A stretch of 10,326 nt of DNA, taken from UHGV virus genome UHGV-0157652, one strand, 5' to 3'. The stretch comes from a virus. Made by a program: the position numbers and the translations under genes. The notes below the pieces were generated by a model, which saw only the letters and a program-made list of their open reading frames with translations, did no database searches and was not told the origin of the DNA. Shown here one piece after another: positions 36 through 8,881 of this stretch (positions are counted from its first letter, which is position 1; each line of letters begins with the position of its first letter).

Positions 36-662
36 TTAGAGTTCGTATTGAACTCCTTTGACTACACCAATGATAAGGCAATTACCATTGATAGGGATGT
101 TGGGATACCGAGGATTTAATGGCACTAAAAACTTTTGAGGGCCATCGATGACTAATTTTTTTACTGTAGCTTCGTTTGTTCCATCAAGTCGAGCGATGAC
201 TATTTTTCCATGACGAGGTTCTGCATCTGGATCTACAATCACTGTTGCGCCTTCTGGTATTGTTGGGAGGCCATTAGGGTTAGTCATGGAGTCACCTTTA
301 ACCTCTAATGCAAATGAGTTATCACCAATCTTTAATGATGTATCTACCCACTTGTCCACTTCACTAAACACTTCTGCTGCCCTGCACTCAGTAAACTGCC
401 CAGCCTGAACCCACGATATTACAGGAACTCTGCGCATGTTTGTGACGAGTTTGCCTTCAAACTCAGCACCATAAAGAATGTAATCTATTGACGTATTGAA
501 GAACTTCGCTAATTTCGAAAGTGCCTCCCCACCAGGGGTATTGATGTCTTTCTCCCAGTACCCCACAGCAACGTCGCTTACTCCACAAAATTTACCCAAT
601 TCTTTCTGGGACGTTCCGGTAACTCTTCTCAGAGCTTTTATACGCTGACCAACCGTTTCCAT
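36..662 (-). CDS. cI: CI-type prophage repressor (HTH_XRE N-terminus + LexA/S24-like autopeptidase C-terminus)
   Basis: 208-aa ORF on the minus strand. N-terminal HTH-like segment (TSQKELGKFCGVSDVAVGYWEKD); C-terminal S24-type core with candidate Ala-Gly cleavage site (WVQAGQF), Ser in GDSM and Lys in VKKLV. Divergent from the cro-like gene across an operator-rich spacer. Confidence 0.85.
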   Translation of the reverse strand: METVGQRIKALRRVTGTSQKELGKFCGVSDVAVGYWEKDINTPGGEALSKLAKFFNTSIDYILYGAEFEGKLVTNMRRVPVISWVQAGQFTECRAAEVFSEVDKWVDTSLKIGDNSFALEVKGDSMTNPNGLPTIPEGATVIVDPDAEPRHGKIVIARLDGTNEATVKKLVIDGPQKFLVPLNPRYPNIPINGNCLIIGVVKGVQYEL

Positions 663-1904: not shown

Positions 1905-2835
1905 ATTAACCGGCTATGTATGGGATGGTTGCGCTGCATCAGGCATGAAATTATCCAGCGTGGCAATTATGGCCCGCCTGGCTGATTTCAGTAATGACGA
2001 AGGTGTGTGCTGGCCATCAATTGAAACTATTGCCCGTCAGATTGGCGCGGGGATGAGTACCGTCAGGACGGCTATCGCACGGCTGGAAGCAGAAGGCTGG
2101 TTAACGCGTAAGGCGCGTCGCCAGGGTAACCGCAATGCGTCGAATGTTTATCAGCTTAACGTTGCGAAGCTTCAGGCAGCGGCATTTTCTCAACTGTCAG
2201 ATTCTGACCCGTCAAAATCTGACGCATCAAAATCTGACCCGTCAAAATTTGATGCGTCGAAATCTGGCAAAAAAGCGGGTTTTCACCCGTCAGAATCTGG
2301 CGGGGATCCGTCAGTAAAATCAAAACATGATCCGTCAGATAAAAAACCTTCTCGTCCGGACGCTTCGCAACCGGACACGCAGACGGATGAACAGGATTTT
2401 TTAACTCGCCATCCTGATGCGGTTGTATTCAGCCCTAAAAAGCGCCAGTGGGGAACGCAGGATGATTTGACCTGCGCACAGTGGCTCTGGAAAAAAATCA
2501 TCGCCCTGTACGAGCAAGCCGCCGAATGTGACGGCGAGGTGGTTCGTCCCAAAGAACCGAACTGGACAGCCTGGGCAAACGAAATTCGCCTGATGTGTGT
2601 GCAGGATGGTCGTACTCACAAACAAATCTGCGAGATGTACAGCCGCGTCAGCCGCGATCCGTTCTGGTGCCGTAACGTGCTCAGCCCGTCGAAGTTGCGG
2701 GAAAAATGGGATGAGCTTTCCCTGCGCTTATCACCGTCCGTCAGCACGTACACCGAAAAACGCGAAGACCCGTACTTCAAATCCAGTTACGACAACGTGG
2801 ACTACAGCCAGATCCCGGCAGGATTCAGGGGGTGA
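1894..2835 (+). CDS. Replication initiator, O-like (N-terminal HTH DNA-binding domain, repeat-encoding linker, C-terminal domain)
   Basis: 313 aa; SD GAGGTCGG upstream. N-terminal region (SVAIMARLADFSNDEGVCWPSIETIARQIGAGMSTVRTAIARLEAEGWL) is typical of phage replication-initiator HTH domains. Internal tandem DNA repeats begin about 100 codons in, the same relative position as ori-lambda inside lambda O. Confidence 0.8.
   Translation: MSTKLTGYVWDGCAASGMKLSSVAIMARLADFSNDEGVCWPSIETIARQIGAGMSTVRTAIARLEAEGWLTRKARRQGNRNASNVYQLNVAKLQAAAFSQLSDSDPSKSDASKSDPSKFDASKSGKKAGFHPSESGGDPSVKSKHDPSDKKPSRPDASQPDTQTDEQDFLTRHPDAVVFSPKKRQWGTQDDLTCAQWLWKKIIALYEQAAECDGEVVRPKEPNWTAWANEIRLMCVQDGRTHKQICEMYSRVSRDPFWCRNVLSPSKLREKWDELSLRLSPSVSTYTEKREDPYFKSSYDNVDYSQIPAGFRG
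2196..2347. repeat. Iteron-like direct repeats (candidate replication origin) inside the O-like gene
   Basis: Five tandem 15-bp units at 2196, 2211, 2226, 2241 and 2256 (consensus about GTCAAAATCTGACCC), plus degenerate copies CCGTCAGAATCTGG (2288-2301), CCGTCAGTAAAATC (2309-2322), CCGTCAGATAAAAAAC (2332-2347), followed by a short AT-rich stretch near 2394-2405. The repeats are in frame and encode an SKSDx pentapeptide repeat. Confidence 0.6.
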
Positions 2836-2837
2836 TC

Positions 2838-3326
2838 ATGAGTCTTTTGAATGAAGTTCAGAAATTCATTGAAGCCCATCCGGGATGTACTTCCGGAGAC
2901 ATTGCGGATGCTTTTGCAGGTTACTCACGGCAGCGCGTTCTGCAGTCAGCAAGCAAGTTACGTCAGAGTGGGCGTGTGGCTCACCGTTGTGAAGGAGATA
3001 CACGCAGACATTTCCCGCGCCTGACTGAGAGAGCGCAGGAACCGGAACCACAACCAGTTCGAGAAACCAGACCTGTGCGCAATTTCTATGTCGGCACTAA
3101 CGATCCACGGGTGATTTTGTGCCTGACCCGCCAGGCTGAAGAACTGGAGTCCAGGGGCTTATACCGTCGTGCTGCAACCGTGTGGATGGCGGCATTCCGT
3201 GAAAGCCACTCCCAGCCAGAACGAAACAATTTTCTGGCGCGTCGTGAGCGGTGCTTACGGAAAAGCAGCAAGCGCGCTGCATCGGGTGAAGAGTGGTATC
3301 TGTCAGGGAATTACGTGGGGGCTTAA
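2838..3326 (+). CDS. PerC/Pch-like transcriptional regulator candidate with an N-terminal winged-helix-like domain
   Basis: ATG 2838 with SD AGGGGG 6 nt upstream (alternative GTG 2832, 2 nt after the O stop codon). C-terminal segment AEELESRGLYRRAATVWMAAFRESHSQPERNNFLARRERCLRK matches my recollection of the PerC-family core; not verified by search. Stop TAA 3324-3326 overlaps the next ATG (TAATG). Confidence 0.5.
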   Translation: MSLLNEVQKFIEAHPGCTSGDIADAFAGYSRQRVLQSASKLRQSGRVAHRCEGDTRRHFPRLTERAQEPEPQPVRETRPVRNFYVGTNDPRVILCLTRQAEELESRGLYRRAATVWMAAFRESHSQPERNNFLARRERCLRKSSKRAASGEEWYLSGNYVGA

Positions 3327-3979
3327 TGAGTAATAAATATTGCCAGGCGCTGGTGGAACTGCGGAACAAACCAGCCCATGAACTGAAGGAAGTGGGCGAT
3401 CAGTGGCGCACGCCGGACAACATTTTCTGGGGAATTAACACCCTGTTTGGCCCGTTTGTTCTGGATCTGTTTACTGACGGTGATAACGCCAAATGTGCCG
3501 CGTATTACACGGCGGAAGATAACGCGCTGGCGCATGACTGGTCAGAACGTCTTGCGGAGCTTAAAGGTGCTGCCTTTGGTAATCCCCCATACAGCCGCGC
3601 CAGTCAGCATGAGGGGCAATACATCACCGGCATGCGTTACATCATGAAACATGCCGGTGCCATGCGTGATAAGGGCGGGCGCTATGTTTTCCTGATCAAA
3701 GCTGCCACCAGCGAAGTGTGGTGGCCGGAAGATGCGGACCATATTGCTTTTATTCGCGGGCGTATTGGTTTTGAACTGCCTGCCTGGTTTATCCCGAAGG
3801 ATGAGAAGCAGGTGCCGACAGGCGCTTTCTTCGCTGGTGCTATTGCTGTTTTCGACAAGACCTGGAAGGGACCGGCAATCAGCTACATCGGGCGCGATGA
3901 ACTTGAGGCATGTGGTGAAGCCTTTTTGGTGCAGGTTCGCCAGCAGGCGGAAAAACTGGTCAGGGAGATGGCGGCATGA
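3326..3979 (+). CDS. Phage Dam-type N6-adenine DNA methyltransferase (orphan)
   Basis: 217 aa from ATG 3326, translationally coupled to the upstream gene. Carries the catalytic NPPY motif (AFGNPPYS) and an N-terminal WRTP segment that I recall as typical of phage Dam-family proteins. No adjacent endonuclease gene. Confidence 0.8.
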   Translation: MSNKYCQALVELRNKPAHELKEVGDQWRTPDNIFWGINTLFGPFVLDLFTDGDNAKCAAYYTAEDNALAHDWSERLAELKGAAFGNPPYSRASQHEGQYITGMRYIMKHAGAMRDKGGRYVFLIKAATSEVWWPEDADHIAFIRGRIGFELPAWFIPKDEKQVPTGAFFAGAIAVFDKTWKGPAISYIGRDELEACGEAFLVQVRQQAEKLVREMAA

Positions 3980-4302
3980 CGACGTTAACTCAATGCCAGC
4001 AGCAGGTGCTGGATATGCTGATTTCTTACCAGAAAGAGCGTGGCTTTCCGCCAACCAATCAGGAGGTGGCAACCATGCTGGGATACCGTTCAGTGAATGC
4101 AGCGGTAGAGCATCTTCGTGCACTGGAGAAAAAAGGCGTCATCACGATAAAGCGTGGCGTGGCCCGGGGGATAACGCTTCATACCGCGGTGAAGGACGAC
4201 GACAGCGAGGCGGTCGGGATTATCCGCGCACTGCTTGCCGGTGAGGAAAACGCCAGGCTGCGTGCAGCCCACTGGTTACATGAGAGAGGCCTGAAAGTAT
4301 GA
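3976..4302 (+). CDS. LexA-type N-terminal DNA-binding domain protein (no peptidase domain)
   Basis: 108 aa; LTQCQQQVLDMLISYQKERGFPPTNQEVATMLGYRSVNAAVEHLRALEKKGVITIKRGVARGITL follows the LexA DNA-binding winged-helix pattern. ATGA overlap with the methyltransferase stop and with the next gene start. Confidence 0.8.
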   Translation: MTTLTQCQQQVLDMLISYQKERGFPPTNQEVATMLGYRSVNAAVEHLRALEKKGVITIKRGVARGITLHTAVKDDDSEAVGIIRALLAGEENARLRAAHWLHERGLKV

Positions 4303-4654
4303 AGCTGATCTTGCCTTTCCCGCCCAGCGTGAACACGTACTGGCGACACCCCAACAAAGGGGCGTTTGTAGGTAAAAGCCTGATAAGCGAGGCGGGGCGA
4401 AAATTCCAGAGCGCGGCGTGCGCAGCAATAGTTGAGCAGTTACGTCGTCTGCCGAAACCAACGTCGGCACCTGCTTCAGTGGAGATCGTGTTGTTTCCTC
4501 CGGATAACAGGATCCGCGAACAACAACAACGGGGGTGTGGGAAGACGACAGCCAGGTGAAAAGAATGCTGGTGGAGTGGGGGCCGGTTATCCCGGAAGGG
4601 AAGGTCGAGATCACTATCAGTAAGTACGAGAAAACGGCGGGTGCAGCCGCCTGA
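4299..4654 (+). pseudogene. rusA: rusA (Holliday-junction resolvase), disrupted by an internal deletion plus frameshift
   Basis: Frame 0 (4299-4559) gives a RusA-like N-terminus (LPFPPSVNTYWRH ... VEIVLFPPDNR) then runs into a stop. The RusA-like C-terminus (GVWEDDSQVKRMLVEWGPVIPEGKVEITISKYEKT) is in another frame (about 4535-4654). The segment expected between them, which in E. coli RusA as I recall it holds the catalytic RRDLDN aspartates, is absent. Confidence 0.55.
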
Positions 4655-5472: not shown

Positions 5473-6468
5473 GTGACCGTGAGAGCACTACTGACCCCTG
5501 AAATTGCCCCGCGTATGGGGATCGTATTGTTCAGACCCGGTTCAGAGCTGATGCCCCTGTTTAGGCAGGGGCGTGTCCTGCTGGAGCCTGAGCCGGAACG
5601 TTATTCATCTTTTGCCAGTGGTGCCGTTCCGGCGGCATCACAACCGCTGGCGGATGATCCTGCCGTTCGGGCCGTGTTCCGCAATGAGGCAGTGATCCGT
5701 CGTGCTGGTGGAGTGGAATGTCTTGAAAGCTGGTTACTTCGTGAAAAAGGCTGCCAATGGCCTCATTCCGACTGGCACAGCGAGAACATGACCACAATGC
5801 GACACGCGCCGGGCGCAATCCGTCTGTGCTGGCACTGCGATAACCAGCTGCGCGATCAGTTCACGGAACGGCTGGAATCAATGGCAACGGATAACTGTGC
5901 CCGCTGGGTGTTGTCTGTCGTGCGTCGGGATCTCGGTTTTGATGATAGTCACGTTGTGACAATGCCGGAACTGTGCTGGTGGCTGGTTCGTAATGACCTG
6001 GCGGATGCCTTACCGGAAAGTGCAGCCCGTAAGGCACTGAGATTACCGAAGCCTGTTGTGCCGTCTGTCACCCGGGAAAGTGACCTTGTGCCTTCGGTTC
6101 CTGCCACCAGCATCATCCAGGATAAAGCGAAAAAGGTGCTGGCGCTGAAAGTGGATCCGGAGTCGCCGGAGTCTTTTATGTTACGCCCAAAACGTCGCCG
6201 CTGGGTTAACGAAAAGTACACGCGCTGGGTTAAGACGCAGCCGTGTGCATGTTGTGGAAAGCCTGCTGATGATCCCCACCACCTGATAGGCCACGGTCAG
6301 GGCGGGATGGGTACAAAAGCGCATGACCTCTTTGTGTTGCCTTTGTGCAGAAAGCATCACGACGAGCTGCATGCGGATACCGTGGCATTTGAAGAGAAGT
6401 ATGGCTCCCAGCTGGAGCTGATATTTCGTTTTATCGATCGCGCGCTGGCAATTGGCGTGCTGGCGTAA
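5473..6468 (+). CDS. DUF968-family prophage protein (YdfU-like) with a C-terminal Cys/His cluster; start may be GTG 5473 or GTG 5479
   Basis: 331 aa. C-terminal QPCACCGKPADDPHHLIGHGQGGMGTKAHDLFVLPLCRKHHDELH is a zinc-binding, HNH-like motif arrangement. Sits immediately upstream of Q; as I recall, ydfU sits next to quuQ in the E. coli K-12 Qin prophage. Confidence 0.7.
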   Translation: MTVRALLTPEIAPRMGIVLFRPGSELMPLFRQGRVLLEPEPERYSSFASGAVPAASQPLADDPAVRAVFRNEAVIRRAGGVECLESWLLREKGCQWPHSDWHSENMTTMRHAPGAIRLCWHCDNQLRDQFTERLESMATDNCARWVLSVVRRDLGFDDSHVVTMPELCWWLVRNDLADALPESAARKALRLPKPVVPSVTRESDLVPSVPATSIIQDKAKKVLALKVDPESPESFMLRPKRRRWVNEKYTRWVKTQPCACCGKPADDPHHLIGHGQGGMGTKAHDLFVLPLCRKHHDELHADTVAFEEKYGSQLELIFRFIDRALAIGVLA

Positions 6469-6481
6469 GTGGAGAACGAGC

Positions 6482-7234
6482 ATGAACCTTGAAGCCTTAC
6501 CGAAATATTACTCCCCAAAATCTCCAAAATTGAGCGATGACGCACCGGCGACAGGCTCTGGTGGTTTAACAATTACGGATGTAATGGCTGCGCAGGGGAT
6601 GGTGCAGTCGAAAGCACCGCTTGGGTTTGCCTTATTCCTGGCAAAAGTTGGTGTTCAGGATCCTCAGTTTGCGATTGAAGGTCTGCTCAATTACGCGATG
6701 GCACTGGATAACCCGACATTGAACAAATTGAGTGAAGAAACCCGGCTACAGATCATTCCTTACCTTGTGAATTTTGCCTTTGCTGATTATTCCAGGTCTG
6801 CGGCAAGTAAGGCTCGCTGTGAGCATTGTGCTGGTACTGGATTTCATAATGTATTGCGCGAAGTGGTGAAACACTCCAGAAGCGGGGAATCTGTTATCAA
6901 GGAAGAGTGGGTAAAGGAACTGTGTCAGCATTGCCATGGTAAGGGAGAAGTCAGCACAGCGTGCAGAGGGTGTAAGGGTAAAGGGATTGTTCTGGATGAA
7001 AAAAGAACCCGGTTTCATGGCGTACCGGTATATAAGATTTGTGGGCGTTGTAATGGAAACCGGTTTAGTCGTTTACCGACCACGCTGGCACGACGTCATG
7101 TCCAGAAGCTGGTACCAGACCTGACCGATTATCAGTGGTATAAGGGGTATGCGGACGTCATTGATAAACTGGTAACAAAGTGCTGGCAGGAAGAAGCATA
7201 TGCTGAGATGCAATTAAGAAAAGTGACGAGATAA
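6482..7234 (+). CDS. Q: Late-gene antiterminator Q (lambda-Q family)
   Basis: ATG 6482 with SD GGAG 7 nt upstream (an in-frame ATG at 6452 overlaps the previous gene). N-terminus YYSPKSPKLSDDAPATGSGGLTITDVMAAQGM parallels lambda Q (FHSPKSPMMSDSP ... GTDVMAAMGM, from memory); contains Cys-rich zinc-finger segments (CEHCAGTG, CQHCHGKG, CRGCKGKG, CGRCNG). Confidence 0.85.
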   Translation: MNLEALPKYYSPKSPKLSDDAPATGSGGLTITDVMAAQGMVQSKAPLGFALFLAKVGVQDPQFAIEGLLNYAMALDNPTLNKLSEETRLQIIPYLVNFAFADYSRSAASKARCEHCAGTGFHNVLREVVKHSRSGESVIKEEWVKELCQHCHGKGEVSTACRGCKGKGIVLDEKRTRFHGVPVYKICGRCNGNRFSRLPTTLARRHVQKLVPDLTDYQWYKGYADVIDKLVTKCWQEEAYAEMQLRKVTR

Positions 7235-7365: not shown

Positions 7366-7484
7366 GTGCCTTGATGTTGGCAGTACGGTAAACACGCTGG
7401 TGGTCGTGAATACTGACTTTTTATCTTGCTGGCTTTTTAGACAAGAGTTATTGGTATGTCATGTTAACCAGAAGGAAAAAAGAC

Positions 7485-7679
7485 ATGCTAAAACAGCTAG
7501 ATATGACAGAAACGGCGAAAGTTGTTTTTAATGAATTAAGCGTCGAACCGGCAACAGTCGGGGAGATAGCACAAAACACATACCTTTCACGCGAACGCTG
7601 TCAGTTAATACTGACCCAGCTGGTTATGGCGGGGCTGGCAGATTACCAGTTCGGCTGTTACAGACGCCTTCAGCAATGA
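7485..7679 (+). CDS. Small HTH/winged-helix-like protein (64 aa), possible regulator, inserted in the late leader
   Basis: SD GAAGGA (7471-7476) 8 nt before ATG 7485 (in-frame upstream ATG at 7461 lacks an SD). Segment ATVGEIAQNTYLSRERCQLILTQLVMAGLA looks like a helix-turn-helix. Confidence 0.5.
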   Translation: MLKQLDMTETAKVVFNELSVEPATVGEIAQNTYLSRERCQLILTQLVMAGLADYQFGCYRRLQQ

Positions 7680-7828
7680 AGGGCTTTTAATTTGTGAAAA
7701 TGGGCGGCTGGTGGGTGTTGGTAGCACCTGCCAGCCATTCGCTCATGCTTACTGGTCACAAGCGAACCATGGCCCACTGCTTTAGCGCAAAAGCAGAGTG
7801 AGCCTACCAGAGTTACGCTTACTGATCC

Positions 7829-8881
7829 ATGAAAAATACTGTAAAAATAAACAGTGTTGATTTAATCAACGCTGATTGCCTGCATTTTATTCAGTCCCTG
7901 CCTGATGATTCCATTGACCTGATAGTTACCGATCCGCCGTACTTCAAAGTGAAGCCCAACGGTTGGGACAATCAGTGGAAAGGGGACGAAGATTACCTTA
8001 AGTGGCTGGACCACTGTCTGGCTCAGTTCTGGCGGGTGCTGAAACCTGCCGGAAGCCTTTACCTGTTCTGTGGACATCGCCTGGCATCTGATATCGAGAT
8101 CATGATGCGTGAACGTTTCAACGTGCTTAACCATATCATCTGGGCGAAGCCGTCCGGACGATGGAACGGGTGTAATAAAGAAAGCCTGCGGGCATATTTC
8201 CCCGCTACAGAGCGCGTTCTGTTTGCTGAACATTACCAGGGGCCATATCGCGGCAAAAGTGACGGCTATGCGGAAAAAGAAAGGGAACTCAAACAGCACA
8301 TAATGGCACCGCTGATATCGTATTTCAGGGATGCACGTGCCGAACTGGGTATAACGGCAAAACAGATTGCCGAAGCCACTGGTAAGAAAAACATGGTTTC
8401 CCACTGGTTTGGTGCCAGTCAGTGGCAGTTGCCGAATGAGGCTGACTACCGGAAGTTGCAGGCACTGTTTTCCCGTATAGCGGCAGAGAAGTTTCAGGAA
8501 CAACAACTGGAACAGACACACCACCAGCTGGTGGCATCTTATGATTCACTGAATCGCAAATATTCTGAATTGCTGGATGAGTTTAAATCTCTCCGGCGCT
8601 ATTTCTCCGTATCAGTCTCCGTGCCTTATACCGATGTCTGGACGCATAAACCCGTTCAGTTCTACCCGGGTAAACATCCGTGTGAGAAACCGGCGGATAT
8701 GCTCCGGCAAATAATCAATGCCAGTAGTCGACCAGGTGATCTGGTTGCTGATTTTTTTATGGGATCTGGTTCCACAATAAAAGCAGCAATGGAGCTGGGG
8801 CGTCGGGCGTTAGGTGTTGAGCTTGAGTCAGATCGGTTTAACCAGACGGTGAAAGAGGTAAGTGAACTGGTGGGGAAATAA
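7829..8881 (+). CDS. Orphan beta-class DNA methyltransferase (N6-adenine/N4-cytosine family; DPPY suggests N6-adenine)
   Basis: 350 aa. Motif IV DPPY near the N-terminus (DLIVTDPPYF) and motif I FxGxG near the C-terminus (VADFFMGSGST) give the IV-before-I order of beta-class amino-methyltransferases. Central region with an HTH-like segment could be the target-recognition domain. No endonuclease partner nearby. No recognisable SD before ATG 7829. Confidence 0.85.
   Translation: MKNTVKINSVDLINADCLHFIQSLPDDSIDLIVTDPPYFKVKPNGWDNQWKGDEDYLKWLDHCLAQFWRVLKPAGSLYLFCGHRLASDIEIMMRERFNVLNHIIWAKPSGRWNGCNKESLRAYFPATERVLFAEHYQGPYRGKSDGYAEKERELKQHIMAPLISYFRDARAELGITAKQIAEATGKKNMVSHWFGASQWQLPNEADYRKLQALFSRIAAEKFQEQQLEQTHHQLVASYDSLNRKYSELLDEFKSLRRYFSVSVSVPYTDVWTHKPVQFYPGKHPCEKPADMLRQIINASSRPGDLVADFFMGSGSTIKAAMELGRRALGVELESDRFNQTVKEVSELVGK

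Follow-up and report, generated by a model that had tools for sequence, protein, structure and literature searches.

A Dam-type methylase gene beside a peptidase-less LexA-like gene is probably a facultative cassette, not half of a dedicated pair, in lambdoid prophages

We analysed a 10.3-kb stretch of the virus genome UHGV-0157652 (hereafter the window, meaning the whole stretch), which spans the immunity, early-right and lysis region of a lambdoid Escherichia coli prophage of the CPS-53/SfII type. In this window, a gene for a Dam-type DNA methyltransferase (Dam) adjoins a gene for a protein that has the DNA-binding domain of LexA and lacks its peptidase domain (LexD). Comparison with related loci makes it probable that these are two co-transcribed genes of the pR operon, Dam being a facultative cassette in a slot and LexD a regulator derived from LexA, and that they are not a dedicated pair. 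The block comprises the following features (nt, nucleotides; aa, amino acids).

2832..3326, plus strand: PerC-family gene (yfdN-like, 164 aa; PF06069, E 8e-09; phrog_1324), the upstream flank of the methylase slot
3326-3979, plus strand: Dam gene (217 aa, counted from the ATG; PF05869, TIGR01712)
3330..3979: optional Dam cassette of 650 bp with ATGA at either edge, delimited by the junction sequences of Dam-less relatives
3976-4302, plus strand: LexD gene (108 aa; PF01726)
4299-4654, plus strand: rusA (Holliday-junction resolvase), a pseudogene here (phrog_34 match, N-terminal part)

Dam as an optional cassette

The PerC–Dam–LexD–rusA stretch was found in 51 phage records at 95–99% identity, including SfII, mEp460, 1720a-02 and Stx2a, Stx2c and Stx2k phages, and a protein search with LexD alone added SfV, SfIV and cdtI. 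Part of the block was matched in 2691 of 5426 complete E. coli genomes. When matches covering ≥80% of the query were counted in complete E. coli genomes, Dam was present in 1725, LexD in 2222 and the two side by side in 1662; at least 560 of the 2222 LexD-carrying genomes (25%) had LexD without an adjacent Dam. Given that the co-occurrences all derive from one DNA block at 95–99% identity, they are not independent evidence of pairing.

Distinct IMG/VR loci with a near-identical LexD contained Dam in 48 of 74 cases, and in the other 26 PerC was joined directly to LexD (26/74; TAATGACG). The Dam-less junction reads GGGGC(G/T)TAATGACGACG, with the PerC stop codon overlapping the LexD start. Because this junction is exact and ATGA stands at both edges, the Dam open reading frame (ORF) is a precise 650-bp presence/absence cassette. 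Annotated phages of the Dam-less type are SfIV and 2H10, in which PerC runs straight onto LexD with a like overlap.

Dam homologues also occur apart from LexD. At 67–70% identity, those of Citrobacter phage phiNP and Klebsiella phage Kp4882-1 have no LexD nearby, and among phage records a PF05869-like gene was present in 582 as opposed to only 63 with a LexD-like gene. Edwardsiella phage EPP-1 carries both a Dam-like gene and a 71-aa LexD, with rusA and a Rha-family gene between them. The preliminary description of this DNA had called the methyltransferase–LexD pairing worth testing and had proposed a survey of co-occurrence; the survey finds the genes often apart, an outcome close to the 'simply adjacent mosaic modules' that the same description had named as the case against the pairing.

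Rearranged forms of the block were also observed. A deletion-fusion variant of PerC and Dam, from which most of Dam is removed, occurs in five loci (L091 and four others, cluster U5) as a 111-aa ORF that joins approximately the first 100 PerC residues to the last ten residues of Dam. Short proteins of 168–217 aa (P0023, P0092, P0098, P0120 and P0121) contain both PF05869 and PF01726 and probably arose by fusion across the ATGA junction of Dam and LexD, through a frameshift or a deletion. In Stx2a_WGPS2 (AP012537.1 / NC_049941.1), IS629 lies within the PerC–Dam–LexD–rusA block, which is matched in 3 pieces over 3166 bp (record positions 9719-12884).

A methylase slot ahead of a LexD–rusA backbone

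Diverged LexD proteins were used to scan IMG/VR, flanking genes were classified and representatives were checked against Pfam. A scan of genome contigs with the LexD alignment was swamped by host lexA (Halomonas and others), and yielded only L008, L010 and L026 as useful loci. The four LexD clades differ in their surroundings as follows.

E. coli LexD clade, 74 distinct loci: upstream Dam in 48 and no methylase in 26; downstream rusA in 74/74
mEp390-like clade (~47% identical), 77 loci: upstream MT-A70 in 66, C5 in 1 and none in 10; rusA in 77/77
Buttiauxella-type clade (~44% identical), 6 loci: upstream MT-A70 in 3, C5 in 2 and D12 in 1; rusA in 6/6
Klebsiella clade (~40% identical), 69 loci: upstream none in 68 and C5 in 1; downstream a 67-aa ORF and DUF968, with no rusA

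The slot between PerC or O and LexD holds methylases of the Pfam families PF05869, PF05063 (MT-A70), PF02086 (D12) and PF00145 (C5), for example in L026 (3297-4004), L010 (521-1471), L177 (1118-3004), L211 (1938-2864) and L218 (2088-2780), and three loci have MT-A70 and C5 in tandem ahead of LexD. In most loci of the mEp390 clade, a gap of ~220 nt separates MT-A70 from LexD. Downstream, rusA directly follows LexD in 157/157 distinct loci of three clades, with ATGA or GTGA overlaps and down to 44% LexD identity. Loci anchored on MT-A70 contained LexD in 68/80 cases and ran straight into rusA without LexD in 12/80, and loci anchored on RusA had both a methylase and LexD in 63 cases, LexD only in 10, a methylase only in 4 and neither in 0, a distribution that gives no positive association of methylase and LexD. 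Judged from gene order, the architecture is a LexD–rusA backbone preceded by a variable methylase slot, filled or empty. Given that this slot lies ahead of LexD, the adjacency of Dam and LexD would be a consequence of its position, as opposed to the mark of a dedicated two-component system.

The constancy of the downstream neighbour raises the question of whether LexD and RusA constitute a recombination or repair module, for example with LexD regulating or targeting the resolvase. We regard this as improbable. Although rusA follows LexD with overlapping codons in every one of the 157 loci, and LexD is present in 73 of the 77 RusA-anchored loci, the Klebsiella clade has LexD without rusA nearby, LexD and rusA are separated in EPP-1, RusA occurs without LexD, and rusA is a pseudogene in the window while LexD is intact; the conserved adjacency may also reflect mere shared descent of the backbone.

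Alternatively, Dam and LexD could form a functional unit in which LexD serves as controller of methylase expression or as a nucleic-acid-binding subunit directing the enzyme. Consistent with such a unit, LexD is adjacent in 1662 of the 1725 E. coli genomes with this Dam, genes of four unrelated methylase families immediately precede LexD homologues, in many cases overlapping them by 4 nt, and there is a precedent: the Stx-phage MT-A70 methylase M.EcoPA8orf6770P (related to M.EcoGV) and the adjacent winged-helix protein PNB-2 form a 1:1 holoenzyme complex, with methylation of 16S rRNA (PMC10810198). We nevertheless consider a functional unit distinctly unlikely. LexD occurs without any methylase in 26/74, 10/77 and 68/69 loci of three clades, MT-A70 without LexD in 12/80 loci and Dam at ~70% identity without LexD; the E. 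coli co-occurrence represents one 95–99% identical block; MT-A70 and LexD are ~220 nt apart in most mEp390-clade loci; the RusA-anchored counts (63/10/4/0) show no positive association; and it is implausible that one protein would physically partner methylases of four families without structural relationship.

Several points weigh against our reading of Dam as a slot cassette and LexD as a separate regulator. Some methylase lies immediately upstream in most loci of three LexD clades, which leaves room for a functional link of LexD that does not depend on the methylase family, and in E. coli 96% of the full-length copies of this Dam allele have LexD next door. The locus samples are the 'best 80' lists of the IMG/VR scans, which are biased towards close relatives and carry no phylogenetic correction. 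GATC sites in the window number 41 against 40 expected, neither a depletion nor an excess, and provide no clue to the specificity of Dam. A search of the window for LexD operators, as CTGT/ACAG palindromes (spacings 0–20) and short inverted repeats, returned only a single SOS box, and the dimerisation that LexD would achieve through its helical tail (see below) is drawn from a monomer model only.

A family-independent role would make LexD the partner of whichever methylase fills the slot, either by timing its expression as a controller or, as a winged helix, by reading methylation or steering it in the manner of PNB-2. Such a role would account for the occurrence of four unrelated methylase families immediately upstream of LexD homologues in three diverged clades, and we judge it highly unlikely. 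The PNB-2 precedent keeps such a minority partner or controller reading alive, but it is opposed by the fact that each gene can be present or absent without the other and by the variety of methylase folds in the slot. We favour the reading of Dam as a facultative cassette in front of LexD.

Start/stop overlaps and operon packing

The preliminary description had listed three overlaps, all of which are present and legible in the sequence: TAATG at 3324-3328 (PerC/Dam), ATGA at 3976-3979 (Dam/LexD) and ATGA at 4299-4302 (LexD/rusA). Further overlaps occur between O and PerC (GTGA, 2832-2835), between the ORFs at 1546-1549, between DUF968 and Q, and between lysozyme and Rz, and no terminator-like site was found on the plus strand from 2832 to 4650. 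Whichever gene precedes LexD, it carries a Shine–Dalgarno sequence in its last codons, 7–9 nt before the ATGA or GTGA overlap. Overlapping junctions are the rule at most junctions of the early-right operon and are not special to Dam and LexD. Given the overlaps elsewhere in the operon and a Shine–Dalgarno sequence irrespective of the upstream gene, those of Dam and LexD reflect generic tight packing. The proposal that tight coupling marks the methylase and the LexA-domain protein as a functional pair was not borne out, as the overlaps are generic, Dam is optional and the diverged homologues are unpaired.

The Dam-type methyltransferase

The 217-aa protein is, by its sequence, an orphan phage N6-adenine methyltransferase. 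In hidden Markov model searches it matched Pfam PF05869 (E 3e-45; 154.3 bits, cut-off 28.1) and the NCBIfam equivalog TIGR01712 phage_N6A_met (253.6 bits, cut-off 97.05; profile positions 1-165 of 165), both well above the cut-offs, in agreement with the preliminary assignment as a Dam-type enzyme with an NPPY motif. This motif, of the catalytic (D/N/S)PP(Y/F/W) type, occupies residues 86-89 (nt 3581-3592). The PADLOC model MTase_II matched residues 1-217 of 217; in the window, PADLOC returned methylase models only, with no membership in any defence system. The neighbours of Dam are PerC and LexD, with no adjoining restriction endonuclease gene, which makes it an orphan. A sequence search of the PDB with Dam returned no solved relative, and the remnant yfdM in the CPS-53 element of K-12 matches the first 267 nt of the gene. 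HP1 Dam, of the PF05869 family, methylates GATC. We also considered an identity with M.EcoGV and the rRNA methylase of Koudelka, and ruled it out: that enzyme is an MT-A70 protein with a DPPW motif and a different gene.

During lytic growth, Dam would methylate replicating phage DNA, and the likely benefit would be protection from restriction in the next host.

The LexD protein

LexD matches PF01726 (LexA_DNA_bind) with E 3e-19 over residues 1-65 (65/65 profile positions), and scores 70.5 bits against the LexA equivalog TIGR00498, which is below the cut-off of 110.95 and covers only positions 1-91 of 203. The protein ends at residue 108, and the S24 peptidase/dimerisation domain (Ser119 and Lys156 in LexA) is absent. 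It was earlier described as a LexA DNA-binding domain without the autopeptidase domain, and the full-length PF01726 match, the lack of S24 and the score under the TIGR00498 cut-off all support this. Aligned over 68 residues, LexD and the N-terminal domain of E. coli LexA share 51% identity.

An AF2 model of LexD (mean pLDDT 81) consists of a winged helix (residues 1-68, nt 3976-4179), a disordered linker (69-74) and a two-helix tail with confident helices at 75-87 and 93-102 (residues 75-102, nt 4198-4281). The best Foldseek matches of the model were 1lea and 3jso, with root-mean-square deviations (rmsd) of 1.1–1.3 Å. The tail helices are preserved in each of the four clades, and roughly ten representative clusters, at 40–55% identity, align over the full length of LexD, tail included. 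Part of LexD can be aligned with the linker of LexA ('IIRALLAGE' versus 'LVGRVAAGE', the latter holding the A84-G85 cleavage bond), such that LexD, despite having lost the catalytic domain, retains an Ala-Gly pair (A88-G89, nt 4237-4242) opposite the A84-G85 autocleavage bond; the equivalent residues are S-G in the mEp390 clade, A-C in the Buttiauxella-type clade and A-E in the Klebsiella clade. Distant LexD matches include proteins of 140–350 aa with two tandem stretches resembling the LexA DNA-binding domain (P0133, P0148, P0151, P0152 and others).

The residues with which LexA contacts DNA are S39, N41, A42, E44 and E45 (PMC3091678). Across the LexD clades, S39, N41 and A42 are retained with very few exceptions (a lysine at position 41 in a single Klebsiella-clade sequence, and threonine or serine at position 42 in a few sequences). 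At position 44, almost every sequence of the four clades has V, A or L instead of glutamate (V in the window); the glutamate at position 45 persists in the clades of E. coli and Buttiauxella and is missing from the Klebsiella clade and from half of the mEp390 sequences. From its domain content, LexD probably descends from LexA and serves as a DNA-binding regulator that is not subject to cleavage. It would be made early in lytic growth, dimerise through the helical tail and escape inactivation by RecA, binding a palindrome with a CTGT-related half-site that need not be a canonical SOS box; given the contact residues, this half-site is probably related to CTGT but not identical to it. A non-cleavable binder of LexA-box-like sites, as proposed in the preliminary description, remains plausible. 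Our literature search on the lambdoid LexD family found no paper.

How LexD acts could take more than one form. As a non-cleavable mimic of LexA, it would occupy host SOS boxes and re-repress the SOS regulon after LexA cleavage in lytic growth, silencing competitors or LexA-controlled suicide functions while the phage provides its own resolvase, RusA. We hold this to be possible but doubtful. It is favoured by the 51% identity to the LexA N-terminal domain (rmsd 1.1–1.3 Å), the retention of four of the five contact residues in the window LexD (S39, N41, A42 and E45), the missing cleavage domain and the place in an early lytic operon, always beside rusA. However, the dimerisation domain of LexA is absent, and the replacement of E44 in four clades and the loss of E45 both from the Klebsiella clade and from half of the mEp390 sequences suggest a shifted specificity; because E44 is replaced family-wide, a simple SOS-box mimic is argued against. 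In addition, the sole canonical SOS box of the window belongs to a methylase family that has the box in LexD-less phages (49/51).

LexD might also activate a phage promoter, by analogy with gp6 of the Bacillus tectivirus GIL01, an activator of the late promoter P3 that consists of a LexA N-terminal domain only and uses its own palindrome (PMC6182141). Both are phage early genes with the LexA DNA-binding domain alone, gp6 evolved a distinct operator (PMC6182141), and the family-wide change of E44 fits a private operator. Against this, late transcription is already served by the Q antiterminator (6452-7234), no candidate operator was found in the window and LexD has no BLASTP similarity to gp6; we consider such an activator unlikely. 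Homology of LexD and gp6 itself was rejected, as BLASTP gave no alignment with E ≤ 100; given this lack of similarity, each lineage probably captured the lexA of its host independently.

The late methylase and its SOS box

In the window, a single canonical SOS box (7839-7854; TACTGTAAAAATAAACAGTG at 7837-7856) was found, within codons 3-10 of the gene for the late methylase. All IMG/VR alleles of the M.EcoGI/GII-type family (79/79) carry a related box, CTGTAAAAATATCCAG, one of them with a single base change in the spacer, and synonymous sites flanking this box vary among alleles. Besides the window, the box observation concerns phage 1720a-02 (L168) and L583-L662. We rejected the box at 7839-7854 as a LexD target: in 49 of the 51 such loci with enough upstream sequence there is no LexD, so the box is not specific to LexD and is more plausibly a site for host LexA. 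It may let host LexA restrain a harmful non-specific methylase. The late methylase is 80% identical to that of phage 1720a-02, which was reported by Murray et al. to be very similar to M.EcoGII, a non-specific adenine methylase that is silent in lysogens and harmful under constitutive expression (PMC5778455).

Just upstream of the late methylase are a 72-aa ORF (7461-7679), which had no match in NCBIfam, and a palindrome of 10+10 nt, CTGCTTTAGC/GCAAAAGCAG (7777-7796), a nearly identical version of which, one base shorter, occurs in phage 1720a-02. The ORF and the palindrome may serve the late methylase as its own regulator and operator.

Genomic context and the rusA lesion

The remaining genes of the window are arranged as follows.

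36-662, minus strand: cI-like S24 repressor, then cro, a cII-like gene and DUF4222
1894-2835: O-like replication gene
Downstream of rusA, in order: KilA-N gene, DUF968/HNH gene and Q antiterminator (6452-7234)
Downstream of Q: 72-aa ORF (7461-7679), PF01555 methylase (7829-8881), holin, lysozyme and Rz

This gene order bears out the nin-like setting (PerC, Dam, LexA DNA-binding domain, rusA) that had been proposed, and the suggestion of two unrelated orphan methylases holds, the early one belonging to PF05869 and the late one (7829-8881) to PF01555. Relatives in RefSeq have an identical gene order and identical starts, and already carry the names 'yfdN: PerC family transcriptional regulator', 'phage N-6-adenine-methyltransferase' and 'LexA family transcriptional regulator/protein'.

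Alignment with intact copies revealed that rusA in the window has a 34-bp deletion and a frameshift around 4519-4530, with loss of the DLDNYNKALFDALTHAG segment and an odd ACAACAACAA filler at the deletion site. The two aligned relatives, ET565 and SfIV, retain the segment, and the best database matches all span 1853 bp as compared with the 1819-bp query, the difference being the 34 bp missing from rusA in the window.

Significance

Both genes are of known kinds and already annotated, and the pairing of Dam and LexD is ordinary. The block itself is very common: part of it is present in about half of complete E. coli genomes, and it occurs in Stx2a, Stx2c and Stx2k phages and in the Shigella serotype-converting phages SfII, SfIV and SfV, with the remnant yfdM/yfdN in K-12. 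Recognizing Dam as a swappable cassette, and not as the partner of LexD, guards against over-reading adjacency. LexD is a widespread LexA-derived protein without the cleavage domain, the only characterized analogue of which, GIL01 gp6, is a transcription activator; should LexD contact SOS boxes, the phage would have in it a tool to rewire how the host responds to DNA damage. The PerC–LexD junction is a hotspot for DNA methylases of four families, and provides a practical place to mine phage anti-restriction methylases.

Comparison with known systems

The window Dam is 97–99% identical to the 'dam' genes of the TIGR01712/PF05869 type in SfV, SfII, mEp460 and cdtI phages, and resembles the PF05869 family in being an orphan, in its NPPY motif and in its place in a lambdoid early operon, with no distinguishing feature. 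LexD shares with the N-terminal domain of E. coli LexA (1LEA, 3JSO) the fold, the contact residues S39, N41, A42 and E45 and the linker, and differs from LexA in that it lacks the S24/dimerisation domain, has V in place of E44, carries a phage-specific two-helix tail and belongs to a phage lytic operon.

Like GIL01 gp6, LexD is the product of a phage early gene with the LexA winged helix only and is presumably uncleavable, and a regulator role would follow by analogy; unlike LexD, gp6 has 66 aa and no helical tail, and lambdoid phages use Q for their late genes. The M.EcoPA8orf6770P–PNB-2 system is similar in that a phage methylase adjoins, and is co-transcribed with, a small winged-helix gene, the product of which changes the choice of substrate. 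However, that methylase is of the MT-A70 type (DPPW) with its partner upstream, whereas here a PF05869 enzyme (NPPY) is followed by LexD downstream, and Dam and LexD are found apart in many loci, unlike the members of an obligate partnership.

The mosaic (moron-like) cassettes at lambdoid gene boundaries share with Dam an exact, ORF-sized presence or absence with junctions at start and stop codons, as well as the presence of unrelated alternative genes in one slot between conserved flanks. The slot described here differs from these in being strikingly specialized for DNA methylases, which are drawn from four Pfam families.

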